Counted from the stretch's first letter, positions 15,566 through 64,000 are shown. The stretch is 64,000 nucleotides of DNA from Takakia lepidozioides (GCA_030704615.1 CM060732.1:43400001-43464000); one strand, 5' to 3'. Notes: generated by a model not told the origin, from the letters alone. Numbers and translations: made by a program.

Positions 15566-15609
15566 TACCAGTCAAGATCCCTAGCTAGTAGAAATCAAGA
15601 TTTAACGAA

Positions 15610-15621: not shown

Positions 15622-17763
15622 AAAGAAGGGGCGTGAATCCCCTTGTGTATAATTCTAATTGTGCTTCCCTCCATTCTAAGCGGAGCAAAAGAAAGAAACG
15701 TTCTTCTAATCTGTCCAACTGTCGTCACTTGGCTGTGGGCTTCCCTCAGCTCCTTCGTGATCAGAGTTCAAGCAATCCTCATCCACGCCGCAGCGGAAGA
15801 GAAGACATGGATGGGGAGTCAAATTGTTGTTCACTCTTGGTTCTACCTTTTACACAACATCCTCTACCTGCAGGTACAGCACCAACTATGCTGCCACGAT
15901 GTATTCAGTGATGCAATCAGCCCTATGTCAGTGATAAACATTGCCCTTGTGGGCAGTTCCCTTGGTTTGCAACACGTCGGAAGCCCCTTTTTGTAATGAG
16001 ATCACGGTCTAGGTGGGTGGGCAGCTCAGATCTGCCATGAACTGCAGGCCCACTAGTTTGATCATTCAGGGTTCATGTCTTCTTGACCTTGCCTCTCCAT
16101 TTGTCCATCCCTCATCAACCCTTTCTCCCTTTTCACTTTTTCTTTCTCTCACACTCCTTTTCCTTCGTGTGTGGATTCCTCACTTTTTCCACAACAGCAT
16201 GGCTATGATGCAATGCAATGCACATCCAGCCAGGCATCCAGTGCATCCATCATTGAAGTCAACCTTGGTTACACAAGACATGATCTGCCCCTCTGTCAGT
16301 CTTTCTCTCTTTCTCTCTCTCCAGTGACTGATCCTTGCACTATCTTTCCCCAAGTGGATCCTATTTGGCCAAGGTGCTTCACAACCCTTCTACAGATCTC
16401 AATTCACACACCCTGATAGCTCTCTTTTTCTCCTCAACTGCAAACATCAGTCATTCACATGTTGAGAACACTTCTAGAAATCAGATCCAAACCCCAAAAC
16501 AGTATTGACTTTTTTTCCCCATCCACGTCATCCCTCTCAGTTCTTCAAATCTGTTTCTGACTGACCATCCCTGTTTTCCTCTATCCACCAAGCTAGTTCT
16601 ACACTGGCTCCACTGTTTTAACATCCAGGGCTGCCTTGTTTTGCTGGCTGAAGACACTGAAAATAAAGAAAAGGAACACAACAACAACAACCATTCTGAC
16701 CCTGAGGTGAGATATCCTTGTCCCCTCTCATTTTCCTAATGACAGTGTAACAACAGGTGCATCCATCTCCACCCTATCCTGGTTTGAATTCCAGTGTCTT
16801 CATTCCATTTTCAAAGGCCTTTTCTACTCCTCACATTTCTGTCCCCTTCAGCAGATACAAGAGATAGTTCCAAAAACTTCACAAAGTCATTCCTAAGTGC
16901 CCAAAAAGAGAAGCCAACACTCTTAGAACTCATCTGTCTTATACTCGTGTGAAGCGGTGGTTCTGCCTGCCAAGCTGGCACCTCACCATCGTTGTCATCA
17001 GCCATATTCAACGCTTTTTCTCATCTTGATTCCAGTTCTCATCATGTCATGACGGCTTGCTTCATCAGCTGGCAACATCCTTGTGCTTGCCAACCTCTAC
17101 CCTATCCTTCTACATGTGTACTTCTGCCCTAAGGATTGATGTGCTCCTACAGCTCTAAGACAGAAGGCAACTACAAGTCTTAATTACAGATAACCTGAGT
17201 CGCATCCACACCAGCCTGCACTTCTCATTCCCCAACAGCTGTTGCTGCGCTCCATCTCCTCATAACTGTACTCTTCAAGACAATGGCGGCAGCGGTAGTG
17301 CACCGCTCTTAGCACCTGCTCAGCTTTCAAAATTGATTATTACCACGCAGAAAGAGGCACCGCTTCTCTTTGCACAAAATGCCAAGCAGATCCCTTAACG
17401 TCGCGCTTTAAGGCAAGCTGATTCACATGGCGCAGGTGTAAGTTTCCAAGCCAGCGTGCCTGACAACACTACGGCAGCAGCTGTGAAGAGTTGCCCGTCG
17501 TCTTCCTCCTCGTTTTCCTCAGCTCGAGTTTCTAGGTTAAACATATGCGACGAAAATCATTCATTCCAAGGATGAAAAATGCGCATGTTATGACTTAGCC
17601 ATATTTTGTCCTGGCAGAGCAAGAGCATAGTGTTCCCATGGAATTACCTGTAGGCCTGGGTAATTCCCTCCCGACATTAGTACCAGGCACTCCCTTTTTC
17701 GCCAATGCCGTAATTTGATGCCCAACAAAATTTTCAATGTTACTCCCCTGCATTCACACTACA
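15622..17763 (-). repeat. LTR (~2.14 kb)
   Basis: Near-identical inverted copy of 25846-27988. Confidence 0.9.
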
Positions 17764-20308: not shown

Positions 20309-20689
20309 CGAACACCGCACGAAGTTGGCAAGTGCGAGGTTCAGTATAGCGACAGACGAAGGCTCACAGGCACCATGCGGAGTCCATCGACGATTGGAAG
20401 TCGCACATTGAAATGGAAAGTATAGTTTCAAGCTACATGCATGAAGGTGGGAGGTGTGATTCCATAGCTAGTAAGTTAGACAATGATGGCCGAATCGGCG
20501 ACGAAATAACATCTCCTGACAGTTTCTCCTGAGGGTGGATCCAGCAGTATTCTCGGTACGGACAGGAGCGTTCGCACTGACAAGTGTCAGGACTGTTAGT
20601 TAAAACGGTCAGACAACCTAGTTGTGCTCATCAAGACTGGCCGCAATTCTGTTGTTTCGGAACAATGCAACCCATTCAGGTTCAGCATG

Positions 20690-22595
20690 CGGAAATGAGG
20701 TTTCAGATTTCCGTCCGGAGTGATTCTTTCGATTGCTGCTGGACGGAAATACGGAGCCGCATTTCCGTATTGCGTCTTGGTCATGCACCAGAGCGACGGA
20801 AATGCGGCACCGAGTTTCCGTCCGGGCAAAACCTTTACACTCTCCAGAACGGAAATGCGGTAACGATTTCCATCCAGCAAGCACGGTATGTGAAGGTGGA
20901 ACGGAAATGCGGTACCGCATTTCCGTTCTGATTGAGAATCATGAACAAAGGGAAAAGAAATGCGGCACCGCATTTCCGTCCGAGTCGCACTTTCCGACAT
21001 TCCAAAACGGAAATGCGGCACCGCATTTCCGCCCGGGTGAGACCTTCATACTCTCCAGAACGGAAATGCGGTAACGCATTTCCATCCAGCAAGCACGGTA
21101 TGTGAAGGTGGAACGGAAATGCGGTACCGCATTTCCGTTCTGATTGAGAATCATGAACAAAGGGAAATGAAATGTGGCACCGCATTTCCGTCCGAGTCGC
21201 ACTTTCCAACAATCCATAACGGAAATGCGGCGCCGCATTTCCGTCCGAGTCGCACTTTCCAACAATCCATAACGAAAATGCGGCGCCGCATTTCCGTCCG
21301 AGTCGCACTTTCCGACATTCCAGAACGGAAATGCGGCACCGCATTTCCGCCCGGGTGAGACCTTCATACTCTCCAGAATGGAAATGCGGTAACGCATTTC
21401 CATCCAGCAAGCACTGTATGTGAAGGTGGAACGGAAATGCGGTAACGCATTTCCGTTCTGATTGAGAATTATGAACAACGGGAACAGAAATGCGGCACCG
21501 CATTTCCGTCCGAGTGGCACTTTCCGACATTCCAGAACGGAAATGTGGCGCCGCATTTCCGTTTTGTATCTGATGCATGGAGCCGAGTGCAATTCCGATC
21601 GCTTGAGACAGCGCAATTCCGACCGCTTTAGACATTCAGACTATCCAGAACGGAAATGAGGTACCGCATTTCCGTTCTGACTGTAAATCGTGAACCATCG
21701 GAACTGAAATGCGGCAGCGCATTTCCATCCGAGTCGCACCTCCCTCACAAGCTAGAACGGAAATGCGGCACCGCATTTCCGCCCGGGTGAGACCTTCATA
21801 CTCTCCAGAACCGAAATGCGGCACCGCATTTCCGTTCTTATGAAAAATCGTAAAACATCGGAACTGAAATGTGGTACAACATTTCCGTCGGAGTCGCACC
21901 TTCCGACATTCCAAAACGGAAATATGGCGCCGCATTTCCGTTTTGTATGTGAGGCATAGAGCTTTGGAACGAAAATGTGGCACCGCATTTCCGCCAGGGT
22001 CAGACCTTAATACTCTACAGAACGGTAATGCGGTACCGCATTTCCGTTCTGACTGCAAATCGTCAACAGCAGGAACAGAAATGCGATGCCGCATTTCCAT
22101 TTATGTGAGACCTTCAAACTTTCCAAACCGGAAATGCGGCACCGCATTTCCGTTCAGCTAAGACCTCTATACTTTCCCGAACGGAAATGTGGCACGACAT
22201 TTCCGTTCATCAACGAAGGTATGTGAAGGGGGAACGGAAATGCGGTACCGCATTTCCGTTCAGATTGGAAATCATGAACCACGGGAACTGAAATGTTGTG
22301 CCGCATTCCCGTCCGGATCGCACGTTTCGACATTCCAGAACGGAAATGCGGCGCCGCATTTCCCTTTTGTATCTCATACATGCAGCTGTGGGATGGAAAT
22401 GCGGCACCGTATTTCCGTTCAACAACTAAGGTATGTGAAGGTGGAACGGAAATGCGGTGCCGCATTTTCTTCCAACAAGCACGGATGTATAGCTTCGTGA
22501 TGGTACTTAACGGAAATGCGGCGCCGCATTCGCATTTTCACTCCAACTCCAAATTTGCAAACGTGGAGCAACGGAATTGCGGCACATGTCTACAC
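20690..22595. repeat. Array A2: ~35 copies of the palindrome (ACG)GAAATGCGG-NN-CCGCATTTC(CGT) with a 53-bp period
   Basis: Starts at 20745, 20798, 20851, 20903, 20956, 21009 ... 21539 and 21652, 21705, 21759 ... 22448; 27-31-bp spacers of about 5 recurring types. Confidence 0.95.
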
Positions 22596-38719: not shown

Positions 38720-40280
38720 GATATTTGGTGCCTGAATTGTAATGTACAACCACTTGGGCTACAATAAATCAGGCCTTCCCATGAATTTCGGCACCGAAAT
38801 CTGGATGAACATCTCTGTCATGTAACAACTTTGGAAGCCAGGGGATGAATTTCGGCGACAGAAATAGTAATTTGTTCACCTCATGAAACTGACCAAGCAT
38901 CCAACGGATGGATTTCGGTGCCGAAATTCGGATGAACATCTTCTTCATCAAATTGTTTCTGCACATGAGGGTTGAATTTGGATGCCAAAATACAGATGAA
39001 TGTGTTCCTGATTACAGTCGTGATTCACCACGTGTCCGGATATCGCTGCCGACATCCGAATGACAGTAATCCTGAATCGACAGAATGGATGTATTTCGGC
39101 GCCGAAATTCATTCTTCATCTCCTTTTCCGACCCTAATTCTGCTGCCCTACGGATGGATTTCGGTGCCGAAATTCATCTGAAGTTTTTTTTTTTTTTTTT
39201 TTTTTCTTTGCGACAGATGAACTTCGGCGCCGAATCTCATCCAAGTTATCCCTTCTAATTTTCTTTTTTCTTCGCGAGCAATGAATTTCGGCGCCGAAAT
39301 TCAACCGACTCCATCCCTCCAAATTCTTTTCAGGGTTTGAGCGCCGGATTTCGGCGCCGAAATTCATCCAATGCCCTCCCTCCAATATTTATTTTTCTTT
39401 GAAATGGATGAATTTCGGCGCCGAAATTCATCCTTACTGTCCGCAATGAGTAACTCTAATATTACATTTTCTATGCGACGGATGAATTTCGGCGCCGAAA
39501 TTCGTCCAAACCCGACACTTACTTTTTGCTTCTGGATGATATAATTTTCCGTAAATCGTTGGAAATACCCCGTTCCGACGAAGATAACAGGAATATTCTG
39601 CATTTAATGGAGAAATCGGCATATTGAACCCATTCTGTCAAAATTAATTGTATTTTAGCCGTTTTTTCATTTGAAACCGACAGTATCCATTAAGTGGTCT
39701 TTTTCGCACGGGACGTTGCCGCACATAAAGTATAATTTCGGCGCCGAAATTATAGTTAAATGTCCAGAAATGGCAAGTCCAACAGGCATGGACAGCATCC
39801 GTCAGGGGCAATGATGGCGGCAAAGCATAGCATGGTGCCGATTTAGTCTTCACTCTGGATGAATTTCGGCGCCGAAATATGGATGATTTCACCTCGTCTA
39901 CGCGTGGACGGAGATATTCGTAATGAATTTCGGCGCCGAAATATGGATGAAATGTGCCCAAGTGCAGCCGTTTCCACTGTTCCGGAATTAATTCCGGCTC
40001 CGATATCCCACTGACAGGTTTGCTCATGACGAATGAGGACTTGTGAAGCGATGAATTGCGGCGCCGAAATTTGTAAGTTTGTGTACGAAAGCACTTGAAT
40101 AGGATGAATTTCGGCGCCGAAATTCATCCGTCCGCCGATGAAACGTACCGACCTGACTGTTGAATGTCATAGGCAGGGGATTTTCATGGCGGTTGGGTTT
40201 CATGATGTGCGGATATTTCATTCAATGTCGGCTGCTCCGGGAACAGCATCCGGTGAACGGAAGGTATTTCGGTGCCACAA
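38720..40280. repeat. Array B1 of the palindrome (GAT)GAATTTCGG-CG-CCGAAATTC(ATC), ~20 copies with non-repeating spacers
   Basis: Cores at 38786, 38850, 38913, 38977, 39041, 39094, 39159, 39222, 39286, 39349, 39413, 39487, 39736, 39864, 39928, 39992, 40056, 40109. Confidence 0.92.
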
Positions 40281-40569: not shown

Positions 40570-42449
40570 AGGTGACTCCGGCAACGAGAAGGAGGACGCG
40601 GGATTTTGGGAAGCCGCCGACGACACGACTTAAGCTCCGTCTCATGCATGAAATGTAGACCTCGTTATCCGGAGACTCGGATCGCCCACCAGTGAGAGAT
40701 TCGTGCTTTGCGGATGTGAAGCACTCCATACGCAATATTCCTTTTACACCTTTTTTTTTGCGTGCAGTGTCTCATGTTTTCCTGTTTGTTTGACATGGGA
40801 GCTGGGGAGGGATCGCAGGGGGGCGAAGCAACACAGTCAACTTTGGATACTCCTGCCCGGGTGCTGCGCTCGCAAGGTGGAAGTGCATCGAGGCAGGCGA
40901 GTCCTCATTCAACACCTCAGATATCGCCTCAGAAAAGCCCACCTAGAGTTCGGAAGTCGAGGAAGCAGAAGGAGCCCATGGCTTCGCCAGTAAAACCCCT
41001 AGGGAGACTGGAAGCAGAGATATTGGGTTTGCAGTCAATTTCAAAAAACACGGATGCGGTGGAGGCCGCTGGAGATGTGGGAGTTGGATCTGCAGAAGGG
41101 CGGCCCATTGAGCTGACAGAAGGAGAGGACGACAACGTGGTACGACTTGGCGACGATCAGAACCTGCTGGAGCTTGCGGAGGAGCAAAACCTCCAGGACA
41201 TTTCCTTCTCTGCAGACTCTTATCTTTCAGGCATTTTACTTCGTGAAGAAACATTAGAAATTCAAATTACGTGAAACAGGAAGACTTGTTGATTCCATAG
41301 TTGATCCACTGGAGTATAACGTCCTGTTCAACCATGTGGGAGAGAAGGACATTCTTTGTGATTTGTCGGGCAAGCCATGGAGGTATGGCAGGACCAGGAG
41401 TCCTGCATTCATCCCAGACGCTCATGGAAACATGTACGGATGTTGAAGGCAGGGTCCTCGACATCACTGCAAATACAGGTGAGAACGTTAATTGAATGCG
41501 GCACCAAAATTGACACCATTTCCGTTTGTGTATGTTTGCTTGTGCGAGGAAGCGACTCATTCTTGAGTTTGGTTGTGGTTGTGTCGTATGAATTTGCAGG
41601 TGCCTGTATGTGGGCGGGAAGGATGTCGAACCGATTTGTGTTCTCATTTGAGGGGGATACGTCCTTGTACGATTACAATTTGGCGGGCCTTCAGCGTTTG
41701 CCTCCGACTAAGGATCCCAAAAACGCAGAAGATGACGTGGAAGGGGAGGAGGAAGATGAAGAGGAGGAAGTCCAGGAAATTCGTTCGATGCAGGGGCGCC
41801 CGAAGCCGCTTCCCCCAATGCCTGTCTTCGAGTGAGTTGCACCATAGTAAGTGTATTGGTTTCGGTTGTAGGGACCATGCAACCTGCCGATGATTCCCTG
41901 TTTGAATTCTCTAATGTACTTCATTCTATGTTTGTGCGTACACTCAGCCTTGCAGAGTCGTCCGACGAGGAGAAGCTGGGAGACTTGCCCGAATCGGACC
42001 CTGTTGCAGAGGAAGAGACAGAATCGCATCGGCCATTCTTTGCCAGAAAATCGTTTCTCGCGAGTCCCCAGAAGCCTTTTTTTCTACCAGCCTATGCAGA
42101 CACGGTTGCCAGAGAAGCCATCAGCAGGGAGGATAGGCCTACTCGGTTAGAGCAATTGACATACGGGAATGAGCAGAGAATTATAATGAGGCGTGAGGCC
42201 AAACATAGAATTGTGAAAGGCAGAGTAGGGAAGTTCGTAATAGAATCCGCGTCCGAGAGCGAGGGGAATGTTGAGGACACTTCCGCACCCAGGTGGACAG
42301 TTCCGGCTGGTGAGGATGGTATTTTTGAGGGGAGGGCTTCTCAGAGTAACAGCGGTAGCGGCAGTGCAGGTTCGGAGGCAGGTGGAAGGCAGCCATCCTT
42401 GCATGAGGCCGGGGATGCATCGGACAGTGATAGCGGATCCTCACCATAG
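40570..42449 (+). pseudogene. Element B cargo gene remnant: N-terminal exons joined at ~41200 to the C-terminal MTase exons (ParB and central exons deleted)
   Basis: DPLEYNVLFNHV..PWRYGRTRSPAFI..QTLMETCTDVEGRVLDITANTG; ACMWAGR..FSFEGD; last exon PFFARKSFLASP..LPAYA..RWTVPAGEDGIFE matches 6915-7412. Confidence 0.8.
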
Positions 42450-47657: not shown

Positions 47658-49096
47658 TTATTACACGCCGTTGTTGGCTGACAGTGGGTTATCCAATGGC
47701 TGGGTACTGTCGAAGGAGAGTTAAATGGAAAAGGCCCGGGAGTTGAATGCCTACAGTATTGAGCCAGGCGCAATCTGACCTCTGTTCTATAGCTTTCACT
47801 ATCGTCACTTTTAGCGCCACCATCAGTACGTATGCTCGTGGCCTGTGACATTAAATGGACATGAACCTTTCAAGACAAACGATGAAATGAAGACATGCAA
47901 CTTCAGATGGACTTCAACATATTCAAGATAAATTGGAGCTCTACTTCAAAAATACCTTGCCATGGATCATAGCCAGGGGCTAATGGTGTGCCTTCCTCCA
48001 TCCCAACGCCCTCCCTTCGCCTGGTTATCGTGATGCGGGCCTCAATACATGTTTCCTGTAGCATTAGCTTTTCACATATCCAGATGAAGTGTGAGAATGC
48101 AGCCTGCATGTTGGTAGCATCTTCCCTCCTGCATATTCCTACAGGCCTTCTGAAACTAGGTAGGGATTACAAAGCCACAAGGCCATGGCAAATATTGATT
48201 GTCATGGTTCTCTTTCCTTGAAAACACCACTGCGCTGTACATGTCTATCTGGATACTGTTTGCATGCAGACTATGAGAGTTGCAATAGTACTGGTACACA
48301 CCCGTGACACTATATCATGCGGATCACAAGGCTCCACATCCGGTGGCTCGCTAACTGCAACACCAAACAAGTCTCTCCCCATAACTTAGAAGCCTTCTCT
48401 CCCTTTCAATCATGCCCTCTGCTGGTCCAGGTGCTCTAATTGGCCTTGTATTTGTTCTCTTCCCACCTAAAATGGCATGTGCTGTGCTTACAGATAGGGC
48501 AGCTGTCCTCTTTCTCGAAGAACGGTTGTGGGTTCCGCCAGGTCAAACTGGAGGCATTTACATAGGCCTCTCATTTTAAGATAATAGGGTCTTCAATGGG
48601 CACGTGCGATGTGGCCGGTGGACCCCACGCACGGACGCCCGGCTCCCCAGCACCCCGCCCGCCCCACCCGCGCCCCGTCCGCCGCGCGGCCAGTCCCCCA
48701 CCCATGAGTCCGCTGCCCTCCAGTCTGCCAGTCCACTGCTGGCCAGTCGGCAAGTCCTCCCCCTTCTACTTCTACTTTCTTCTCATGTTCCTTGTGCGAT
48801 CGACTCCATTCTCTTCGCGCCTGTTTCTTGGCACTGTTTTGTTTTCCTCTTTGCGTTTCCATCACCGTAACGAAAGACGGCCGTTCTTCCCCAGGTGTGG
48901 AAAGTCGCGGTGAGCCGCGAAGCGTCGCAAACACGCTCGCCTTCGTAACAACTCGAAGTTCATCGGCTCGGTGAGGTTCTCACTTGCTACGGTGTTTCCA
49001 TTCCATTCTGTGTCATCTTCTTGCTTAGGGTGAGTCTTTTCATAGGACTTCTATCTGTCGCTCATTGTCCTTGCACCCTCATTTCATTCTGCAGCG

Positions 49097-52000
49097 ATGG
49101 AGGATGCTTGTGAAAAGAGTGGAGCGGACTGGGTGGACTTTGTGCACCAAACCAGACTGAAGAAGGAGCAAAGGTACTGGTACTCACCAGACGAGTTCGA
49201 TCATAAAATAGTGGAAGCATTTGTAGACCTCCGTGCCCGAAAGCCCAAAAACTCGAATTGGCATAAGGACAAGCTCTTCTGTCCCTTTTGTGAAGAGGTT
49301 ATCAAGGACAAAATCCAACTAAATCGGCATTGTGTTGACACGGGTTGCAAGGAGACTGTTGCAATGATTCCACGGGATTTCAAGCCTTGGCCGATACTGA
49401 AAGAAATGTCGATTGTCAAAGAGGCCACAATGCGCTTGCGCGGATCAGTGCTTGACCCCCGCACTTTGGAGTTAGACGAAGTGCGCGCACGGTATGGCGT
49501 CCATTCAGGTGGCCCGTCAATGGAGGATTTGCAAGTGCAGGGAACGCCGGACGCTGCCAGAAAACGTAAACTGAGTGATGGGGCCCAAAAAAAGGAGAGG
49601 CAAAAAAAGGAGAAGGCTGCAAGGTTTGCTCGCGAGGCAAGGGCAAAATCCACGCAACAGACTGAACCCCGTTCTGGGCGGCAGACCCACACCTTCAGTA
49701 CTGATATTGAAAGTGAATCTGCTCAGGGCGGGCAAACCATTATCCGGAATGATGACTTCGAAGGCCTGGAAGGGGTGACAAGTCCAGTGGACATTGACTT
49801 GCCTGACCAGACTCGGCAGCAGACTCACACAAATATTGCGACCCATGCCAGAGGTTTAGGGTCAAAACCAAAAACTCAACAGAGCACTGAAGGGCCAGTC
49901 TGTCCTGACACATTGCGCCTCGTTGACTTTGGGCTTTTCCCACCAGAGTGTCCACCAATTGGGGATCCAGACATCTTCCGTTATTTCTACAGAGTTCCCC
50001 ACTCAGGTCTGCTACGCACATTCATCTGACAGGCGGAACAGATTTGGTTGAACAACTTTGAAGATGAAGATGAAGATGACGATGATGAAGTAGAGGAGGT
50101 AATGGTCAGTCTGACCGCCCAGTCTGTTCTCTGTGATGTTTGAGTCCATCATCGGGGTCACGTTGCCTATTTAGTCTGGTCAGTCCGTTGCGTTCTCTCC
50201 TCAGTCCGCTGGCTCACTCCGCTCGTCAGTTAGTCTGTTTTATATCGCTACATTACTTACTGAGTCCGTTTGTCAGTCTGCTGGTACAGTCTACTAGTTG
50301 CCTCGACCCTATGTACGCACGTTACGTTTGTCAGTCTGCTGGTCTGTGAGTCCAGTCCGCTGCATGAGGTGAATATAGAGTCCACGTCCATGTTCCTGAC
50401 GTCCAAGTTCTCTGCCGTGTACTAGGATGAACATGTTTCTATTCGTAGGGCCATTCAGGCTTGGCGGATACCTAGCAATGATGCTCCTTTACAAGCGACT
50501 GCAGTGCGTGCGGAAGTGGACCGCGTGCGAGAGTACATATTATTGAAGTATCCTGGGTCATCTGCTGTTATAGCGGCATTACATATTCAAGACGCATCGG
50601 GGGGGGAATGCGTCTGGGACAGCCGAGTCTGCCATCCAGCAGACTCCCACTCAGCAGGCCGTCATCCAGCAGACTGCCGTTCAGCAGCCTGTCATCCAGC
50701 AGACTCCTCTCCAGGAGCCCATCATGCAGCCCATGCCAATGGGAAGTCCTGTCATCCAACAGACTGCGGACCAGCAGACTGACCAGCAGACTGCCTTTCT
50801 CTCACATAACACGGCGCTTTTTGCAGTTTGGCGATCGCCATCACCGGTAATTCGACCCGGAGCTGAAAACCTCACACTTCCCCGGCTTAGGGTGGGAGAA
50901 ATTAATCCCCATTTGGATTGGCATAATGAGCTCCACCGGATTGTTGCGGACCGCTGGTGGTCATTTGTACCCTTTCATTATTCCATGGAGTTTACTATTG
51001 AGGAAGCCAACCATGTTCTGGAAGCCGCCTCTGTTGTTTCCATTGAAGCCACAAACGTCTAAAATGCGCCGCCTCTACTTGTGCAGCTGATTCTCATGGA
51101 TGACCCACGGCCTGAAGACCTCAGACATATGCCTATGGCACATCCAACCTTTGGGGTGCAAAGAAAGCACTTGTTCGGATTGACTGAGGAGGACTTTGAG
51201 CGCATGGCAGCTTCCTTCCTACAACACAGATGGATGCAATTTGGCAATTTCCGATCATACAACAAGTTGATGAAGGATCTGCATAGTTTGAGGATGGACT
51301 TACTCCATGGAACAGACCATTCACAGAAGTTTGTGGTGGATGACGCATTGCACTGGTTTGCATTGGTGATGGAACGAGCAGTATTCGACATTGTTTTGCA
51401 GAATTCCAATGTCTTCAAAGTCCTGTGGTGTGGGATCCCAACTGAAGACCGCATCGGCGCCATTGCTCATCTCGATGGAGCATGCCTGTGCCGGCAAATC
51501 AAGGACATTGGCCCCGTCGGAAATCTCTTGAAAGGTAAAATGTTATGGGCAACTTTCGTGTTTCAACTCAATTTCTTTTGCCAACTTTTTTAGAAGTTCA
51601 CATTTGCATAAACATGTGTTGCAGGGCGAGTTGATCTAGGAGACAAGCAAGTGCATGCTGCTTTCGATTCTTTTGCCAGAGGTGCAAGAGACCTTGTCCT
51701 GGCTTTACAAGGAGTTCGAGAGACTGTCCAGCAGACTGGCCACAAGAATGTCCAACAACATATTCCCCACGACACATGTGGGCAGACTGCCCAAGTGCTG
51801 GAGACCGAGCATGTGCACCAGACCATCCTGGGTAATAGGCCGGATCACTCCCAGCAGACTGCCCCGCACACACATACTCAGTATGTGTAAACAGTACTGA
51901 GCGGGCAGTGAACTTTGCAGACTTTGCAGCAGACCGGAGAACAGACCGGCCAACAAACTACCCCTCAGCCGACTGTGCAGCAGACCAGCAAACATGGCCA

Positions 52001-52998
52001 CCAGACTGCCCCTCAGCAGACTGTGCAGCAGACCATGCAGCAGACCGACGAATCCAGCCAGCAGATTGCCCCTCAGCAGACTGTGCAGCACACTGGCGAA
52101 CCCACCCAGCAGATGGCCGAGCAGACTATCTAGGAGACTAACAGCCAGTATGTTCCCTGGATTGTGCAACATACGCGGATGCACTGGCCTCACCGGGACC
52201 CTGTGGATGAATTTCTGCCGAGTTCCCAACAACATGTTTTTGGATCTGCCAGTATGAGTGTTTTCACCGAGTCCACTTTTCCCCCAGGCACATTCACTGA
52301 CGACATCATCAGGTCACCGGTAAAGCATTTTTATGCAGCTCCCCGTGGCCTGCCTTCTATGACCTTCCAGCTTAGTCCCGTTTTCGTGCGCTCAGTGACG
52401 AAAGCCATAGATGAGTCTTACGTGATGACTGAACTCAATCTGGGAATGCAAAACTGTATCATAGATCTTACAGAAGAGTCTGAAGAAGCAATTGCCGGTG
52501 GGTCTTCCATACATGTTCTTGATGTTTCCCAAGTCCATGGAGATCCGAACACCCAGCCGGCTGTCCACCAGACTGACCAGCACACTGAACAGTCGACACA
52601 TGGAAGGACTGCCGAGCAACCTGTGGCGGGGCAGCATACTGTCTTCATTGATGAGCAGACTGAACCGCAGACTAACCAGCAGACTGCACAGGTCACAGAT
52701 GGAAGGACTGACCAGGATGGCTCGGAGCGGCAGACTGCACAGCTCAGCTCTGACTGATCAGTTCCGACTACACGGCCTGACCAGCACACTGCACACTTCA
52801 CAGATGGAAGGACTGACGACCAACCTGCCACCGAGCACACTGCCCACATTGAGGAAGAGACTGAACCGCAGAGTTGCCAGCAGACTACACAGTTCACAGA
52901 CGAAAGGACTGACGAAGGCGGCCGAGCAGACTGCCCACATTGAGCAACAGACTGAACATGCGGGCAGACACACTGACAAGGAACCACATGCGGCGTAG
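49097..52998 (+). CDS. Uncharacterised multi-exon gene(s), with an N-terminal C2HC zinc-finger-like motif and Gln/Thr-rich repeats; several lesions
   Basis: FCPFCEEVIKDKIQLNRHCVDTGC in ORF 49097-50029; coding-like ORFs 50724-51062, 51081-51593 and 52164-52757; QQT repeats. Confidence 0.5.
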
Positions 52999-53146
52999 AC
53001 ACCGTCTAGTATAGCGCTGGATTACATGGAGTCTGCTCCCTCACCCCTTGGGCAGGTTGTGCCATTTCCTCTTTCAGCATTGTTGTGTATGTTTTAGCAC
53101 ATTGTAAAATTGGGCTAATTTGCCATTTTGCTCGGTATCCTCACAG

Positions 53147-54844
53147 GATGTTCGTCCCTCCGTCGGCAGACTGTCTACTTCTGAGGACATGACATCTTCC
53201 GCCCATGCTGCAAATGTGGGATCGACAACCAAGAAAGGTGTGGGAGTGAGCACGCCCCCCGATGCGCGGGTCAGTTCTACGCATGCGACCCACAAAGCTG
53301 CAAAGACAGGTCCAGCAAGTGTAAACAAACCTGCTGACCAGCCTCTGTTGCTAAGTAGGGCGGCAGCGCTGCGTTTTTCTGCTCTATCCAACCCGCCTAC
53401 AGCTGTCCCTGCTTCCCAGGGGAGAGGCAAAGCCAAGAAGCGGACTGTCGTGGACCATGCTGAGGAGGTCGATGAGGGTCCGAGTACCAAGAGACCGGCA
53501 AAGAAAAAGTCTGGCGTCTTTATGAACAAGAACCGCAAGCTGGCCTTGGACATGGACAAAGATGTGGGTCGTTTCCTGGAGCAGCACAGGTGAGTACTAC
53601 GCTCAGTCTCCTCGTCTGTCTTTGTCGTTAAGTGCTTTGCGCTCTGTTGTGGTCAGTCTGCTCGCTGGTCAGTCTGCTGCTGGTTTCATCATTGTCTGTT
53701 GTGGTTAGTCTTGTCAGTCTGATGAACTGTTCAGCCTATAGAGTGTTTGGTACCATGTTGACGTCAGTCTGTTCAGTACATGAGGCTTCCCGAAGGATGG
53801 TCTGCTCTGTGCAGGATGGGTGTTCGGTTTGGCAAAGCACATGCTCTGCACGTCAAGGCGGGTAATTCCATGCTGATGTTTTTTGAAGGGGACCCACGGT
53901 TTGAATGCGGACTGTCACCGGATGACATAAAGGCGCTCCAGAAGGTTGAGTCAGAGTGCATAGATAGACTCATGGAGCTGTGGTGTCGATTCTATGAGAA
54001 GTCGGTTGAGGCTGCGTTCACTAACACTATTGTTGTTCTTCCAACGTCGACGTGGACGGTGTTGAAGTCATTGGGGGTGGGGCAACGTGAAAGCCTTCTG
54101 GAGGTCTTGAAAGGTTGCCTCAGCACTGAACGACTGGGCAAGGACTTGAAAGAGTGCAATTTCATTTTGGTGCCAATTGGGGACGAGTAAGAACTCTTCT
54201 GAGTCTGCTGAGACTGTCTCCTGAGTCATAGTCTGGTTTCGCAGTGTCATCTTGACTCTGAGCGATTAAGTTGACCTCTGTATTTGTGTAGTGGACTGGG
54301 TTAGAAGATTGAGTCTGCTAAGTGCTGAATCTGCTGAGTGGTTGGTCTGCTGAGTGTCAGTCTGCTGAGTCTGCCCATCAAGATTGTGCAATGACGCCAT
54401 GTTGTTTGATACCATTGCAGGGGGCACTGGAGTGTTTGTATCATCGACCTCCACAAGGGCTGTTACACTCACCTGAACTCTATCAGGGACTCGCATAGTT
54501 GTCCCTTTGTTCTAGGGTGGAGTCGGAAGCTTCATGCTGAGTGCTTAGGGTACTTGATGGACTCACCGGAGTGGCATGAGATTGTCCAAGCATTTCAGTT
54601 CCACGCGCCTGATGTGCCCCAGCAACCATTTAGCTGGGAGTGTGGCTTTTACATCATGTCATTCATTCAAGTGTTTTATGAGTGGGTAAAAGTCAGAGGA
54701 AATGTCTCCAAGACTACAAAGCCAGAGAGAGGAACACCTTTCACGAAGGACTGGTTTACTTTCAAGTTTGCACTTGGGCAGCGAATGCAGTGTGCCCAGT
54801 ATATCGTGCGGGGGTTGGACAATGTAGAAAAACCGCTCTCATGA
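53147..54844 (+). CDS. Ulp1/SENP-like (peptidase C48) SUMO protease, multi-exon
   Basis: ECIDRLM..; FILVPI then next exon GHWSVCIIDL..HLNS..; DVPQQPFSWECGFYIM (catalytic H, Q and C; the usual Asp appears as Asn). Confidence 0.75.
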
Positions 54845-55917: not shown

Positions 55918-58900
55918 TCAGTCTGACTCAGAGTCAGTACAATGTATCCCCTCTTCCTCTGCATCTAAGTCTAAGTATTTTAGAACACCGGATCCACGCT
56001 GGATACACCTACGGCTGGCCACTAAAAAGTCAGGGGATAGGGACTCGGACGCGTGAAGTGCCATTGCTTCGGCATAAACAGGGAGCAGAAAATTGGAAAG
56101 GGGGCTGTCGAAAACAGACTCGCCAGAAATGACTGTATCTCCTGAAGATCCACCGCTGGCTTTCCTGAAAGACAGCCTGAAAAAGTTATTACTGTAACTT
56201 TGATGTTATCGAGAAATTGAGTATGACTCCCAAAGAGGGTTTAGCACTTACTCACATGAAAAGTCGTTGTCGACCTGCTTATCTTCGGGATCGTCATCAT
56301 TTCGAATATGAATCCGATCAGTCTGTGTGCCTGAAGTGGAGCCAGACAAAAGGGGGAGGAGCACTGTGTTGTAGAGGTCAGAATCACCCTCCATACCAAA
56401 AAGGCTTCTTCCGCCTGCCTTGCATGCGTGGTAAGTTGCTCCTGCACCAGACAGGAGAACATAAACAGTTTGGAGGAGGGGATTTAAGCAGATGAAACTG
56501 TTGAAAGGAAACCAATTCGGAAGGGAGAAAACGAACCTGTGGACACAGAAAGATCGACCACCCGTGCAGAGCGGTGGCTGCATGACTCCAGCAGTATTTG
56601 CATGAATGCTGGTGACTTTTCCTTTGCACCTCTCCAGGGAGTGCCATCTGGTCTCTTCAGAGTCTGACTGGACTGCATGAAGTTGTACAAAATGTCATCG
56701 ACATGGGGCTCATAGGGGGGGTTGACGAAACAACCCTGGTCAGAAATCTCAAAGCTGCGGATGGAGGATGGTGTCTTTGATGTGCGAATCCTCCGCAGGC
56801 AGATCGCCTCGAACATCCTCGTCTGCCAAAGATAGCAGGTTAGTGTGGTAAACACAATCTAAAGTGGAAGTGTGTACATCGGCTATTCAGAACTCTGACA
56901 CCAAAAAACCATGAATCGTTGATGATCGGTGTCGATCATAAAACATTCTACTAGAGTGGAGCTGCAGAGAAAATTGAAACTCATGATCAAAGCATAAGCA
57001 GAAGGCAGACGGCATACCAGCTGACCAGGGAAACCCCCTTTCACAAGGTAGAGGCTGTTCACACAATTCCATGTGCGCAAAACTTCAAACCCTGAAGACT
57101 TGAGGTATGATGCCAATGCCCGACGACTATCATTGTCACATGACTGAAAAAGCAGAAGTGTCCCTGCATCAGAGAGGAAATTGTTACAGAACCCGAATAC
57201 CCAACTCCAGTAGTTGTCCTCGAATTTGTTCCACCCTGGCGTCTTGCCCTTTGGAAGAACTTCTGGCACAGCCTGGCCATCCGGGATGTCGAGAATGACA
57301 ATGTCGGCCGCATAAGTTTTCTGCACACCGCACACGAAGGTGGGACCTGTGCTCACCTGCAACAGACATGTTTTTTATAAGAACGATGGCAAGAATGTTT
57401 TCAAAGAACGAGACTGAAATACTGCCAACGAAACATTCAGAGAAAAAGGAAAGAAACTGGAATTCTCACCAGATTGAGGAATGAGATTATATTGTCCCAG
57501 GTAGGGGATGGCACCCCAGTGTATCCTCTCTTTCGACTCTGCATCATCGAAAGCCAACCCTCATTAACAATTTTCATCTCTCCTGCTGAATCAGAACGGG
57601 AAGGGTGTGGCTTGGCATCGAACACGCACTGAAGAGTGCGGGTATATCTTCCAGCACTAAAGTCCTGCCCACTCTCCATCTCCTTTTCATTCTCCTTCCC
57701 CTTGTCCTTTTCCTTCTCTTTGGACTTGTCTTTGTCCTTTGGCTTTGCTGGTGAGATGGCTATGACATCAACAGCCTTGTCTTTTGGTTTGCGGCCCGCC
57801 TTCTTTCCCTTCTGCGGCGTTCCCTGAGCATCAGGCTCCTTGGCAGCCAAGGTTGCTATGTTTCGTTGATACTCTTCGTCAGTCAAAGGCGCCAGCATCT
57901 CAGCGTTATTGTTCAAGTATTTCATATGCTGTTCTTGAAAGGTCGTGTGCTCAGGTGGGCAGTCAAGGTACCACCCACAGTCTCTGAAGTGAGAAGGACT
58001 CCAGTCCTTCAATATCCCTGCAGTATACATGGTTGGATCGTTTGCAGGGTCCGACCACATGTCAAGATAGTCGGGAATTCCGCTCAGGTGATTTCCTTCC
58101 ATAAGCACATATTTCGTGTACCTGAAAAAAGGAGATGAATCCCAACCCACAAAAGCGCTCAGTGAGTAAGATGCAAGTAGAACAGAAAGAATAAAACATG
58201 GATTGAAATGGCTCTGACAACTGCTCCAAGGACCTTTCAGGACCACACTACTGCTCCAGATATGAATGTCGTCAACGCCATTCAGAACATTCCATTCCAT
58301 GACACTGTAAATACATCCTAATCCAGGTGAATGCAAATAAGCGATTAGAAATGACACAGACATAGAAGTGAATGTCGTCAACGACATTCAAGAATGAAGC
58401 CAAATTATTACTGAAATGAAGCAAAATCACAGGATGGAAATAAAAAAATTGAGTAAGGAACCATCCAGGAAAACTCAATGCACATTCATAACGAACCTAT
58501 CACTGAGGACCTCACAACATCACTGTATGTGAATGGCGTCAACGCCATTCACAAAAATACAAAAAAGAAACCAATTACTTAGCTCCCCAATCCATGAAAA
58601 TTGAATTTGTCGCTTTTGAATAATACAGACACAGCTGTGAATGTCGTCAACGACATTCACTTTGGATTTCTTAAAACAGAGCTTATCAAGCCTCCATATT
58701 CATCGCAAGAGGAAAAAACAATGCAGAACAACTGAATGTCTGCATTGACATTCAGCAAAATGAAGTGATCAACCCTCATTGTAACCTCTATGGACATTAC
58801 AAAAATTTAAATAACCTTGAGGACCACACAACAACTCCGTATGTGAATGTCGTCAACGCCATTCAAGGACATTATCAATTCTAATCAGGGACAATATAAT

Positions 58901-61554
58901 TGCACCCTTAGATCCTAACCAGGTGAATTCATATACTCGCTTAAGAATGACTCAGACAAAGAAGTGAATGTCGTCAACGACATTCAATCTGGATCTAAGA
59001 TTGCAATCCATATGAAGCCACAATTTTTCCCAAAAAAACAGTAGAGTTTCAAGTATGACATTTCACCTGTACACAACTCGCATCATGGCCCACTCTCCTC
59101 CAACCTGACTGTCAAAGTCGTTGGACCGTAAAATGTTACCATCTTTGGAGAACTCCCGGAAAAAACAGTATCTCCAGGTGAGACCTCTCCACTTCCTTAT
59201 GTATGCCTCCAATGACATTTGGGGAGGGGAAACAATCGCAATGTTCAGGTCCTTCAAAGTCTGATCCAGCACAATGACGGCGCGCTTTTCGAGCTGCAAA
59301 TAGTATATTTGTCAGAATTGCAAAAAAGAAACACATCACATACTTGAAGAGAAGAAACAGCATGTTCGAATACACACCTGACTCCAAAATGTAGCCTTGT
59401 GGAGCCAGTTATCAAACACCAAATCACTGATTCCTTCCACCTTTGTGCCAGGCTGTATGGTGCTCTTTGGGAACTGATTCAAGTCCTTTACTGTTTGATC
59501 TGAGTTCCATATCTCCAGCCACCTTATTTTTGTTTGTGGGTCGACCATCGATATGGCCAGCCGGTGCAATTTCTCCTGCTGCATCTCCGGATGCACATGC
59601 TTGTCATAGTGTGTTTTGATCTGCTGAAGGAACTCAGGACCAAGTCCAGGATCTACTATTCTAAGCTGCTTTCCGAAGGCTGACATCAATTTGGTTCTTC
59701 GCATCTCAAACTCCTTCTTTATTGCAGCTTCCACACCCTTTGATGTCCTTAGTTCCTCTGGTGTAGTGCGGTAATATTCGGATTTTCCCTTCTCAGCTGC
59801 CTCTGCCAGTTCTTGCTGCATTCATTCAAGTAGTGATTAGCTCCGAAGGGACTCTAAACATGTATTCGAAAAGTAAACAGATTACAGACTCGGGCTTACC
59901 GCATACATGTACTCCAGAAACGCCTCTCGTGTCAAAGAATACCAAGTGCCTGCAGCTCTTCCTGTTTCGCACTTCTTGATGATATTGGGTGGTAGTACTG
60001 TCCGAAAATCATCCAGCTTCATCAGACCAATCCTCTGAATTCGGAATAGTGTGTGAACCAAGCTTGTTGTCACATGCGATTTCTCTGTCGATCTGCAAAA
60101 ACATTGAAAACATTGCATTCCTTAACACTGTTTTTTGAGGATCAACAAGACACTACAGAGGGAATCAAATCTCCTGGATGACTTACTTGTTCACGTCGTG
60201 CATAGCTGTAAGAAGCCTAGCGATGTCGTTTCCTGGATCCAAAACCATTGCCTCCACAGCAACATGCTTGTCTTTGTCTTTCGAATGGTGTTTCTGAATG
60301 TATCCCATCCATGCCAGCAATCGGTGGTTGCCGTCCCAGACGTAGAACATGTGGTTGCAAAATTGCTGGGTGTTTTTTCCCATCATGAGGCCCAGCTCGA
60401 ACTCCTCATTGGCATCTTTCCAGCACTCATCCCAGTTATCACTGATCTCTGGAGAAACTAATGTGCTTTTCCCATTTATATCCGTCAGTGACACATAAAA
60501 AACTTGTGCACCAAGTCTATATCCATGCACAAAATCACTCTCCAATTTTGTTATGTCATGGGAAAGAGGTGGACGCACAACAGGCATTGATATCATCCGG
60601 CACAGAGGTATGTCCAGACGCCCTCCAGATACGAGCATGTCCCTTATAACCTCCTGAGAGTTTACCTTCTGGAATGACATGAGTTCTTTCACCTTGTCAA
60701 GGTAGTGCACTTCGGATTCATCTGCTTCATCTGTATTCTCTGAGCTTTTTGCGGACTCGTCCCCATCTCCAGATCCTTTCCCCTCTGATCCTGTAGGCTT
60801 CGACCTCACAGTTTTCTGCACGATGCCATTCAGTTCTGACTAAGTGATTTGCAAATAGTGAATGGCGGTAACGACAATCACTCTGTATCAAGGAAACTCA
60901 CCATGAATGGTGTGAAAGAATTCAGCACAATCTACACATGCAAAGCCGAGACTGCCGTATTCAAAACAAAAGTGAGAGCGATAGCGAACGGCGTTAACGA
61001 CAATCACAAAAGATAACAACCTGCCGGATCGGTGTTGTGTAATGACATATATGTGCAACTGATTGGCGGCAACGACATTCAGTGTAGTTTAGGGAGAATA
61101 GTAAGTGCAGACTCTCTCTTCAAACACATAGGTACATAAATCTCATGAGCAGAATCGAATGGCGTTAACGACGCTCGCGATTCAGTAGTTCCTGCTAAAG
61201 AATGGAAGAGGAAGGACTCCTTGAAAGGCAATCACACAGACTATATGATAAAACTTACTGGCACCTTCTTAGGTTTTGAAATTTGATCCCCTTCTGCAGC
61301 TTTCCTCTTCCCTCTCACATCTGCTGGAGTTTCTGTCTGCGCAAGGGTTTCTTGACCTTCTTCAGGTTGGCGTTCCGCGTGCTTCCACCTTCTTCAGTGT
61401 CCCTGCGATTCATCTCTGCCTCCACAGGCTGGCGCACTCTTATCGCCGACTGTGTCGCAGCCGCTGCCTCAGTCTCCGTCTGCTCTTGTGAATCAGTCTC
61501 CGCGTTCACCTGCTGCCTTGGCCCTGTGTTCTCCAACAAACGACGCCTCGTCAT
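55918..61554 (-). CDS. Element C cargo gene: ParB/Srx-like domain plus beta-class DNA amino-methyltransferase-like domain, ~10 exons
   Basis: IPLCRMISMPVVR..YVWDGNHRLLAW (60183-60821); ADIVILDIPDG..NNFLSDAGTLLLF (56883-57362); GAKEKSPAFMQILLESCSHRSARVVDLSVSTG then ATYHACKAGGRSLFGMEGD; last exon FDSPLSNFLLPVYA ending in TGA at 55918-55920. Confidence 0.8.
58260..58990. repeat. Intronic cluster of the C palindrome TGAATGTCGT-CA-ACGACATTCA (7 copies)
   Basis: Copies at 58263, 58369, 58530, 58638, 58733, 58844 and 58965. Confidence 0.88.
60855..61180. repeat. Second intronic cluster of degenerate C palindromes (4 copies)
   Basis: TGAATGGCGGTAACGACAATCA 60859; CGAACGGCGTTAACGACAATCA ~60986; TGATTGGCGGCAACGACATTCA 61060; CGAATGGCGTTAACGACGCTCG ~61156. 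Confidence 0.75.
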
Positions 61555-62269
61555 TTTCTCTCTTGCTCTGCGTCTCTCTCTAAGGGAAGTAAAATAAAGA
61601 GACTTTCTTCTCTTTCGTATTCTAGAAGGAACCCTTCCAGCTTGACTACCACTCTCCCTCTAAGCGCGAAAAGTAGAAAAACGCAGTGACTCCCGATTTC
61701 TTGCGGGATTGCCTGTGTTCTTGCGTGTCTCTAGAAGCATCGGATTCCCTCCCGCGTGACCGTTACACATAGTCGTTTCGTTATTAGTGCACATGCCAGC
61801 AATTGGTGTACAGCTGTTCGTATTCAGTTATGGATGTCTGACGTGTGCCGCCCAAAACAAAACGGCGTGTTCTAAATTATAACTGGTTCAATATTTAAAA
61901 AGAACAGCGAATCCCAGAAATTGATGCGCAGTCTTAAACAAATAAATATAAATGAACGAGAGTTTGATGACAAATTTTGGAATATCATACACGGTCATCC
62001 TTGTTATCCAAACCCCACATTCGTTGCACATTTGGAACTTTCCAGGTGCGCATGATCATTGGTAGTAGTATATAGATACATTTACTTAATCTGCAATCCC
62101 ATTCTCGGATCCTGTGGCATGCTTCCAGGAAGTCGGCTTTGTTATTGGGTTTATTGATGAGGTTCTGATTAACGGTTTAACAGTTGCCGACACTGCCCCT
62201 ATGGATTCTCTGACCACTGGGCCCACAAGAAAAGTAATGGGAAGTTGGTGAAATATTGTTTCCAAAACC

Positions 62270-64000
62270 GTGATGAGACGGCTCATATCAGAGTGGAGAG
62301 TGCGTCCTGGTCGATACAGAGTACTTGGAGAGCCTCGGCGAAAGTCCCTTGGGTCATATGTGACGCCCGGGACTGCTGCTTCGGTCGTTGAAGACAAGAG
62401 GGAGGTGGTGGTGAAAAAAGAACAGACTTCCTCCACTCCAATCGTTGAGCTTTCGGATTCTTCCGATGATGACATAAGTGAAATTCCAAATCCAGTCCTT
62501 CCTACTGTGGTTGCAGAAGCTGATGAAGAAGAGATTTGTAGTGTCATTCCAAAATTGCGGGCGATGGGAGGAATGGCTGGATTCAAAAGTGAGTTGCGGG
62601 GAATTGATTGGGAATCTTTGAAGCAGGTGCCTGTGAAGTTCTTGCCGGAGACTTTTGATGGCGATATCCTATTCGAGCTGCCTCCTCCTCCGCGAGTTGG
62701 AGGTGTAACAATCATGATGCATGGAATGGACAAGAAACACGACGGGCACCCGTGGTGCAGAACAAAAACATCCAATATTCAGAATGATGACAAGCTTGTT
62801 TTCAGGAGGACAGTTTGCAATGGACACCTTAGGTGTGATAATTTGAATTGCAGACACTTTCTTCAGTCTGGAGTTCATAATCAAAGCGAATGGGAGGGTC
62901 TGGCGGAGAATCCATTTCAGCCTGGGACTGCCCCTCCACCGGCAAACACTTTCGTCTGCAAATTCTGCAAACTTGTGCCATCCTGCTTGGCGCTCTACGG
63001 AGCAAGAATGTACTATGTTGTCCACCGTTTGAATACAATGACGAGAGCTTGTGTGCATTTTGGATTCCATAACCATCCTGTCTTGAAGGGGGATTACAGG
63101 GAGAGTGTTGAGACAGTATCGAGGTTGATCAAACAGGAGTTCGGGAGAAACCCATCCGCAACAACATCTGCAATTGCTCTTGGCGCAAGCAAGTCCTTCT
63201 TGGAAAGCCATATTTTGAGTGAAGGAGATTCTGTGGGGACTAAACTTGACGGTGCAGCATTGGACCTGGTCATGGATCATTTCTCCACTTTAAGTTCACC
63301 TAACATTCGGCATCAGATCAATGCATTGAGAATGGGCTCTGGGATCAGAGGCTACATAGACAATATTTTGGAATTGAAACGACTGAGCAAGTACGATTAC
63401 ATCCAGGACAATGTATTCCCAGGTCAAGGTGCCATCAAAGTTTTTCTTTTCAAAATGTCGACTGTTGGGGATGGCAGTGGGGTTAGCCTCGTGAAGCGGA
63501 TGCAGAAGACTGGGGACTTGCAGAACTGTTTTCTTATGTTTGATCATGTGAAATGAGTGAAGGATTGGACGACAATGGCTTGTCATGTCTACGATCCAGT
63601 GTACCAACGAGTTATGACAATTGCAGTTTGTGACATGCAATCCGAGGATACGGAATCCCAGAAGCTCATGTGGAATTCCCTGATACGTGTCATGGGCTGC
63701 CATGGGCTGCCATCTCCAAATTTCGCAGGTTTCATGGCGGATAGTGCTCAAGCAAATTTCAATGCTATTCGTATTGTCTTCAGATCGGGCGACCCAAAAG
63801 TGCCTATGCCAGGAAGAGAGCGTACATGTCTATTCCATTGGACACAATCTCTGGAAAAACATACAAAGTCGGACATCAAACCAGAGATGCAGACTCAGCA
63901 CCGTAAATTGTGCAAAGAGTACAAAGATGCTAGAACAATGAAGGAGGCGGACACTTTGTTCCAGACAATTCGTGCCTGGTGGTTCTCTTCTGGAGCTGCA
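62270..64000 (+). pseudogene. Element C transposase (GCM-like zinc finger plus Mutator-like DDE), in-frame TGA at 63554-63556, runs off the window
   Basis: Collinear with the A transposase: MDKKHDGHPWCRTKTS, FPGQG..FLFKMST.G.GSGV.LV.RM, MFDHVK*VKDW, GFMADSAQAN, ERTCLFHWTQSL. Confidence 0.85.

Follow-up and report, generated by a model that had tools for sequence, protein, structure and literature searches.

We analyzed a 64,000-nucleotide stretch of the Takakia lepidozioides genome (GCA_030704615.1 CM060732.1:43400001-43464000; hereafter the window) that holds three related copies of a transposon-like element, A, B, and C. In A and C, a spliced gene ends in a methyltransferase-like domain whose motif IV reads Asp-Ile-Pro-Asp (DIPD), with an acidic residue in place of the tyrosine that stacks on the target base. 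We find that an acidic residue at this position is widespread among relatives and that, on the sequence evidence, DIPD is a selected feature and not decay. We tentatively propose that the domain, maintained by selection, likely binds S-adenosylmethionine (SAM) but is crippled as a catalyst, and that it serves as a reader module likely to mark or protect its own element. The fusion of a ParB-like domain to a methyltransferase on a transposon is already known; what may be new here is the acidic motif IV. The GT-AG introns and Ty3/gypsy pol genes of the window mark it as eukaryotic, and the named homologues point to a likely moss-like host.

Motif IV in copies A and C

Six-frame translation of the window places ADIVILDIPDG on the minus strand of copy C (Asp at 57290) and CDMIILDIPDG on the minus strand of copy A. 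These two occurrences of ILDIPDG compare with 7e-5 expected from composition, and the two of DIPD with 0.3 expected. The original prediction, made by a model from the DNA alone, had quoted ILDIPDG without a base-stacking aromatic in both copies; translation confirms this and puts the Asp of A at 8407. Downstream in C, the motif X, I, and II strings are present as that prediction gave them: WRGAKEKSPAFMQILLESCS from 56636, RVVDLSVSTG with its Asp at 56555, and, after an intron, ATYHACKAGGRSLFGMEGD from 56439. The motif I strings are DLICGTG (A), DITANTG (B), and DLSVSTG (C). The region 56248..57362 that had been assigned to the domain in C does contain these motifs, not as one block but as three exons. 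A second candidate for the true motif IV of C, NPPY at 56723, was rejected: it falls within the variable region, 0.3 such strings are expected by chance, and it is unconserved, with DPNC at this place in A and no NPPY in the other rows of a 25-row family alignment.

A predicted beta-class methyltransferase fold

Single exons of the window gave nothing relevant against Pfam and PDB sequences (matches to RxLR effectors and protocadherin were taken as chance), and a first, length-restricted protein search gave 0 of 239 candidates. Searching the motif IV exon against 1.84 billion representatives yielded 86 proteins. The homologue P0049, about 30% identical to the exons of C, covers the whole methyltransferase domain without introns. 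It matches Pfam N6_N4_Mtase at E 4e-4 (20.8 bits, under the curated cut-off of 26.7), and its language-model neighbours, among those shown, are all N6_N4_Mtase clusters (0.94-0.95). A profile of 85 rows reaches M1.HpyAVI (E 2.5e-9) and CcrM (E 1e-7), aligning D-I-P on D-P-P and W-N on W-D. The AlphaFold model of the P0049 domain (a homologue, not C; mean predicted local distance difference test score, pLDDT, 85) aligns with CcrM at Z 18.9 and a root-mean-square deviation (rmsd) of 3.5 over 218 residues in VIA-align, where the top 11 rows are all beta-class or type III amino-methyltransferases and MT-A70 comes after, at Z 9-12; Foldseek gives E 5e-12.

Sequence, profile, and alignment give the motif order IV-V-VI-VII-VIII-variable region-X-I-II. 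The beta-class order IV...X-I first read from the DNA is thus borne out and runs on to motif II, with a permuted Rossmann-like fold predicted for P0049. When we checked whether the fold might not be that of a methyltransferase at all, the P0049 model came out as a beta-class amino-methyltransferase. The domain is therefore a predicted beta-class DNA amino-methyltransferase fold. Pattern scans, which reach close relatives only, found no close prokaryotic or viral relative; tblastn of P0049 and of P0122, a homologue from the moss Ceratodon, gave within the same close-relative reach weak DNA-methylase matches only, in phages and plasmids (best E 1e-3).

Conservation of the acidic residue and of the SAM pocket

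The conservation profile across homologues draws on the 82 of 86 representatives, from clusters less than 50% identical, that cover motif IV. Of these, 70/82 have an acid at position 4 (E 43, D 27, S 5, K 3, N 3, L 1) and none has an aromatic there. At position 1 stand D 66, E 10, Q 3, N 2, and K 1, with Ser in 0/82, and at position 3 P 70, L 10, S 1, and K 1. After the loop, the motif V Trp is present in 83/86 and the following Asn in 84/86. The set was seeded with a DIPD query and missed homologues from Ceratodon, Selaginella, and Adiantum, so the figure of 0/82 aromatic overstates uniformity. DIPD had been described as conserved in A and C; the acidic position 4 extends well past these two copies, while Ceratodon keeps an aromatic (DTPF).

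Codon comparison of three related metagenome loci gives dN/dS of 0.147-0.169 across 221-225 codons of the methyltransferase domain (the premature-stop codon of L001 was excluded). At about 0.16, this ratio argues that the domain has been under selection with the acidic residue present. We also looked for DPPY in intact copies, and found that intact relatives lack it; L003, P0049, and P0112 have open frames and an acidic residue.

Five phage beta-class methyltransferases, chosen for comparison from the weak tblastn matches, read DIPY, DPPF, DLPY, DLPY, and DPPY at motif IV and DPCAGSG, DPFGGSG, DLTMGSG, DNCMGSG, and DFTMGSG at motif I. Since Ile at position 2 and a drifted motif I also occur in these enzymes, both are ordinary; of the features originally called non-canonical, the Tyr loss is real. 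For the SAM side we used the sinefungin contacts of N4CMT, mapped by sequence alignment (PMC10406627; this and the other papers cited are drawn on in excerpt). In the family alignment, whose 25 rows include near-duplicates, the motif I Asp is kept in 23/24 and its final Gly in 23/23, Thr replaces Ser in 20/24, the motif II Glu is present in 12/12, and motif X has Lys or Arg in 22/24; the motif X His has become Gly in 23/24, and the first Gly of motif I is kept in 11/23 only. By alignment, the clear loss is the base-stacking Tyr alone, and the SAM-pocket residues are largely kept. In HP0593, Y107G abolished activity, and in TaqI loss of the motif IV Tyr lowered it (PMC3036652); a model of N4CMT has this Tyr stacked on the target base (PMC10406627).

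Motif X has changed as well. A Trp (WRG) stands in 21/24 family rows and is missing from Ceratodon and all 5 phage rows; at the fifth place, 22/24 family rows have Arg or Lys. Ceratodon has Leu for the Trp and His at the fifth place, and the phage row L014 also has His (HPHEKP with DPPF). The pairing of an acidic motif IV with an altered motif X, set against Ceratodon, is one contrast and may be compensatory.

An aromatic motif IV in Ceratodon

A search from the ParB side gave 27 matches among 7,997 candidates scored. Ceratodon purpureus M758_1G295400 (P0122, 1147 amino acids) reads DTPF at motif IV and passes the Pfam N6_N4_Mtase cut-off (30.4 vs 26.7 bits), and its cluster mate KC19_4G114500 (P0142) also reads DTPF. 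The two proteins are near-identical, yet in the two assemblies the locus tags suggest different chromosomes (1 and 4), as expected of a mobile gene. The Selaginella homologue has DMPD and that of Adiantum a degenerate NFPT. DTPF lineages such as Ceratodon may still be active writers.

A quick 95-row tree over 89 columns was poorly resolved. In a 24-row tree, which omits six near-duplicate or partial rows (L002, P0092, P0113, L007, L011, and Selaginella), a 100/99 branch at which long branches meet splits the plant rows from the 5 phage rows, and DTPF nests near A and C (82/81). An all-acidic clade is not rejected by the approximately unbiased test (p-AU 0.28), so DTPF may be either ancestral or a reversion.

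A spliced fusion with a ParB-like domain

The methyltransferase domain is the C-terminal end of a predicted spliced ParB/sulfiredoxin (Srx)-fold fusion protein of about 1,100 amino acids. Copy C is collinear with residues 220-1131 of the 1147-residue Ceratodon P0122, and locus L011 has the ParB-like and methyltransferase domains together. The model of exon 60187-60839 of C (pLDDT 92) retrieves the ParB/KorB/PadC/sulfiredoxin superfamily, by name, in 12 of 13 VIA rows, the best at a middling Z of 7.9 (rmsd 2.6, 90 aligned); Foldseek gives E 0.016 only. The string DGNHR is invariant in 30/30 aligned ParB-like rows, with G110 and R113 in 30/30 and A116 in 29/30; the motif of the ParB/sulfiredoxin superfamily is GxxRxxA. 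Among the language-model neighbours of this exon (60186-60659, minus strand) is a fungal cluster in which 31% of members carry DUF3723, a domain that we take to be fungal mobile-element cargo.

Three predicted introns of gene C are missing from contigs of run X1, which is presumed only to be RNA and whose sequence differs from the window by a few percent; the contigs join 57470 to 57320, 57018 to 56820 (with 2 other letters at the joint), and 59065 to 58119. The first of these joints means that the motif IV exon can start at 57320, not 57356. Reading through the joints and the predicted last intron, gene C is open over 477 codons from 58121 to the stop. The sole X1 contig over the last two exons retains the last intron and has indels, and so may derive from another copy. 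Outside the methyltransferase domain this copy of C appears damaged, with a stop in its transposase and a frame break near 61368, where runs X2 and X3 have one base more than the window and the window frame closes early. An intron inside motif I (after D-x-x-x-x-T-G; window 56537-56441) stands at the same place in nearly all relatives (L001-L011), and the other introns of the methyltransferase domain vary.

Palindrome arrays with a CpG core

Elements A, B, and C share a 20-bp palindrome frame, GAA-N3-CG-N4-CG-N3-TTC, each with its own variant (Table 1). The exact pattern, which was derived from these same repeats, occurs 35 times vs 0.03 expected, and other spacings occur 0-1 times. None of 74 looser palindrome sites falls in the approximate coding exons. 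The exact pattern is absent from 12 of 12 metagenome loci; only the CG-N4-CG core recurs, in the relative L003, where it belongs to another palindrome that forms a 139-bp array. Palindromes centred on GGTCCG or GGATCCG lie beside family genes in L009 (3-99), L008 (1568-1597), and L001 (1960-1981) and are possibly the same kind of site.

A proposed reader module or a possible rewired enzyme

With an acidic residue where the base-stacking Tyr should be, the methyltransferase-fold domain is likely unable to methylate DNA normally. In the mechanism that we tentatively propose, the fusion protein would recognise the CpG-centred palindromes of its own element in introns and spacers, and the ParB/Srx-fold domain would bind nucleotide and help load or spread the protein on DNA. 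The methyltransferase-fold domain would keep SAM or S-adenosylhomocysteine and contact or cover the CpG bases; lacking the aromatic, it would not hold a flipped base for efficient methyl transfer. Occupancy of the arrays could shield the element from host 5-methylcytosine (5mC) silencing, or aid transcription or transposition, as VANC does for VANDAL.

Several points weigh against this proposal. The SAM side is well kept and the catalytic Asp (66/82) and motif V Trp (83/86) persist, beyond the need of a pure scaffold, and the motif X Trp (21/24) could replace the lost Tyr. Both P0122 and P0142 of Ceratodon read DTPF, the former passing the N6_N4_Mtase cut-off, and the 86-protein set found with a DIPD query under-samples aromatic-bearing lineages. 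The methyltransferase for which a fold was predicted is a homologue about 30% identical to the exons of C. Finally, the palindromes may instead be transposase sites. The Muta1 transposase, of a Mutator-like element (MULE), binds repeats both palindromic and subterminal (PMC5499845), MULE transposases can carry WRKY-GCM1 fingers (PMC1702500), and the half-site of A, ATGCGG, matches the animal GCM site, given as ATGCGGGC/A in an oligo list (PMC4701085).

A rewired, active DNA methyltransferase is a real if lesser possibility, and stands close behind the reader model because the SAM pocket and Asp largely survive. Here D-x-P would activate the amino group, another aromatic (the WRG Trp or one in the loop) would hold the base, and the acid would read the base edge; the target would be the palindrome CpGs, as N4-methylcytosine (4mC), or a nearby adenine, as N6-methyladenine (6mA), in either case a self-mark. 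The catalytic Asp, the Pro, and the SAM-pocket residues are retained, as this account needs, and motif X looks compensatory, with Trp in 21/24 and Arg or Lys in 22/24 vs Leu and His in the DTPF protein of Ceratodon. That contrast comes, however, from one lineage, and the Trp lies two residues before the SAM-contacting His and may instead act in the SAM pocket. Ser at position 1, the usual sign of an N4-cytosine enzyme, is found in 0/82, and we know of no active amino-methyltransferase with an acidic fourth residue, which counts against this account. A CG-N4-CG core is common to the three palindrome types and the L003 array, and N4CMT and Marchantia DN4MT1 methylate CpG (PMC10406627; bioRxiv 2021.02.12.428880); against this, Tyr loss inactivates a related enzyme (PMC3036652).

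We consider it unlikely that an active D-x-P-D/E methyltransferase, with Trp for the lost aromatic, is loaded by a ParB-like clamp on the CpG-centred palindromes of its element and writes a non-host mark that blocks 5mC silencing; if true, a transposon would encode a sequence-specific epigenetic self-mark using new active-site chemistry. Activity on another substrate is less probable still. The substrate could be RNA or a basic side chain attracted by the acidic pocket, such as a lysine of a histone or of the transposase; alternatively, the reaction could transfer another group of SAM. The kept SAM pocket and Asp, with the base-stacking residue acidic as both D and E, suit this idea, and amino-methyltransferases have moved to RNA repeatedly in eukaryotes (PMC4738411). 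However, DNA enzymes give the closest folds (Z 15-19), with the RNA-type MT-A70 group scoring lower (Z 9-12); the domain is fused to one of ParB/Srx fold, and DNA palindromes surround the gene. That DIPD arose from DPPY by decay, in dead copies of the transposon, is very improbable and, judged by the alignments, largely refuted, for although many copies are broken (B, the first exon and transposase of C, several metagenome loci) and Leu for Pro at position 3 in 10/82 looks decayed, position 4 is acidic across clusters less than 50% identical, Glu from a Tyr codon takes two changes, dN/dS is about 0.16, and the open-frame L003, P0049, and P0112 are acidic.

Under either account, two natural forms can be set side by side in the land-plant branch: the near-canonical DTPF of Ceratodon and the D-x-P-D/E that is widespread and under selection. 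For each, the element itself supplies a candidate target sequence. This pair bears on whether transposons write their own non-5mC mark or the enzyme has turned reader. If the acidic-motif enzyme is active, the catalytic rule for amino-methyltransferases would be widened; if it is dead, it would be a new anti-silencing candidate beside VANC.

Layout of the elements and neighboring genes

Table 1. Coordinates of genes, exons, and palindrome arrays of elements A, B, and C in the window
Feature	Position	Strand	Remarks
C methyltransferase exon 1	57018..57320	-	motif IV DIPD 57290-57279, Pro-rich loop, PxWN 57239-57228, motifs V-VIII; both borders joined in X1
C methyltransferase exon 2	56537..56822	-	variable region with NPPY 56723, motif X WRGAKEKSP 56636-56610, motif I DLSVST(G) from 56555
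C methyltransferase exon 3	56248..56441	-	helix after motif I, motif II GMEGD (Glu 56391), acidic tail, stop
C exon with WYL(E/D)CP segment	57470..58121	-	conserved segment, charged linker, first methyltransferase strand
C helical middle exons	59066..60094	-	borders approximate; collinear with Ceratodon P0122 residues 383-664
C ParB/sulfiredoxin-fold exon	60187..60839	-	contains DGNHR
C probable first exon	61210..61555	-	low complexity
C transposase-like gene	62156..64000	+	Cys/His Zn-finger (GCM-like by eye), D..D, CxFH; in-frame stop 63554-63556; runs off window
C-type palindromes	58264..58985		GAATGTCG-TCAA-CGACATTC; 7 in one intron; 4 more 60860-61176
Spliced gene(s) with Ulp1-type protease end	49046..54841	+	Zn-finger-like start, Gln/Thr-rich repeats; PF02902, E 6e-10; three GT-AG joints in X1 contigs
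Copy A	6918..11307	-	ParB-like exon 11046-10594, middle exons, methyltransferase exons (DIPD 8407, DLICGTG near 7800)
A transposase-like gene	17757..20467	-	37% identical to that of C over 619 amino acids
A-type palindromes	20687..22550		GAAATGCGG-NN-CCGCATTTC; 53-bp array, 30 sites; 17 more 4643-10563
Copy B, broken remnant	40720..42446	+	motif X-I exon (DITANTG) and later exons
B-type palindromes	38783..40125		GAATTTCGG-CG-CCGAAATTC; 15 sites; 1 at 42894

The transposase-like gene of element C starts at about 62.2 kb, back to back with gene C on the opposite strand. It has no relevant match in Pfam, PHROGs, or PDB and no MULE match in Pfam, and a MULE label was dropped as unproven. In copy B, a hidden Markov model scan found neither a motif IV exon nor a ParB-like exon. 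In element A, frames broken at both ends of a segment at about 11.3-23.6 kb continue across it, so that the segment (~11290-23570) appears inverted, by a real rearrangement or an assembly error: the low-complexity start of gene A lies at 22770-23570 on the plus strand, and a gypsy pol is split between ~11290 and ~23570. Given this apparent inversion, the transposase-like gene of A was probably back to back with gene A originally. Four flank comparisons gave no terminal inverted repeats or target duplications, with C running off the window and A and B cut by retrotransposons. In run X2, a 1.75-Mb assembly found with this stretch, 55.4-64 kb is covered near-continuously at a summed depth of 10-38 vs 0-3 at 44-48.7 kb, which is compatible with a multi-copy unit. 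The Ulp1-ending gene or genes are probable further cargo of element C.

Other features accompany the elements. Copies A (6918-7448, minus) and B (41760-42446, plus) share an extra conserved exon after the methyltransferase exons, 43% identical over 101 amino acids; similar segments are seen by eye in L001, L003, L007, and L010, and C seems to end without one. Downstream of copy A lies an NIF/HAD phosphatase frame (1965-3176, minus; PF03031, E 3e-16), possibly transposon cargo, and beside the palindromes of A two diverged (29%) inverted paralogous frames stand head to head (3771-4457, minus; 4862-5446, plus). The window also holds 6.0 kb of gypsy sequence (end-repeat, gag, and pol) duplicated in inverted orientation at 99.8% identity (11762-17764 and 25845-31846), a 100-bp tandem repeat at 258-618, and a GT-rich repeat of short units (9/19 bp) at 38057-38364.

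Comparison with known systems

The closest published architecture is that of the Ectocarpus element Sola1-1_Ec32, in which a gene for a 1104-residue ParB-like and N4C/N6A methyltransferase protein lies opposite the transposase (PMC12477816), so that the accessory ParB-methyltransferase arrangement is already in print. Both systems join the two domains in one protein of about 1,100 residues (1147 in Ceratodon) encoded on the strand opposite the transposase; the likeness holds for element C, and for A only if ~11.3-23.6 kb is inverted. The same report cites similar proteins from green and red algae, proposes that the Sola1-1_Ec32 protein binds and modifies its own element, a self-modification of the transposon, and gives Physcomitrella Sola1-1_PPa as the best match of the transposase in a supplement row (PMC12477816). 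Sola elements make 4-bp duplications and occur in Physcomitrella (PMC10741241). Unlike Sola1-1_Ec32, the lineage here is one of land plants, and the two are likened by architecture; the excerpted account of the algal element gives neither a motif IV sequence nor palindrome arrays. Literature searches returned no account of the present family or of an acidic motif IV, a weak negative given that they also missed the Ectocarpus paper; the excerpts of PMC4738411, PMC8885841, bioRxiv 2021.02.12.428880, and bioRxiv 10.64898/2026.05.21.726589 contain no description of this family.

In fold, in motif order IV...X-I-II, and in D-x-P, the domain resembles CcrM (6PBD), M.BceJIV, M.MboIIA, M.PvuII, M1.HpyAVI, M.RsrI, PF01555, and the phage DIPY/DLPY enzymes, and it shares with beta-class amino-methyltransferases the post-loop W, the motif I Asp and Gly, and the motif II Glu. 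It differs from them in having Asp or Glu for the motif IV Tyr, WRG[PA][RK]EK[DS] for HPTQKP, a conserved Pro-rich loop, introns, and N-terminal ParB-like and helical domains. Bdelloid N4CMT (PMC8885841, PMC10406627) and Marchantia MpDN4MT1 (bioRxiv 2021.02.12.428880) likewise have a prokaryote-derived beta-class fold in a eukaryote. Both methylate CpG (PMC10406627; bioRxiv 2021.02.12.428880), the conserved core of the palindromes here; they differ in carrying SPPY/TSPPY, in being host genes of demonstrated activity, and in that their accounts, as excerpted, describe no ParB-like fusion.

In the VANDAL/VANC system of Arabidopsis, too, a DNA transposon carries a second gene, and short motifs specific to each family are arrayed in its non-coding DNA (PMC5735166). 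VANC differs in its DUF1985/DUF287 domains, for which window exons and homologues have no Pfam match, and in its non-palindromic 8-9-mers (PMC5735166); the likeness is one of working, not homology. METTL14 and the methyltransferases of DIRS1-type retrotransposons share with our domain a methyltransferase fold with a disrupted catalytic motif, and DIRS1 provides a precedent for inactive methyltransferase domains on transposons (PMC4738411). These proteins belong to other clades, and the family described here retains most of its SAM-pocket residues and, in most members, the catalytic Asp.

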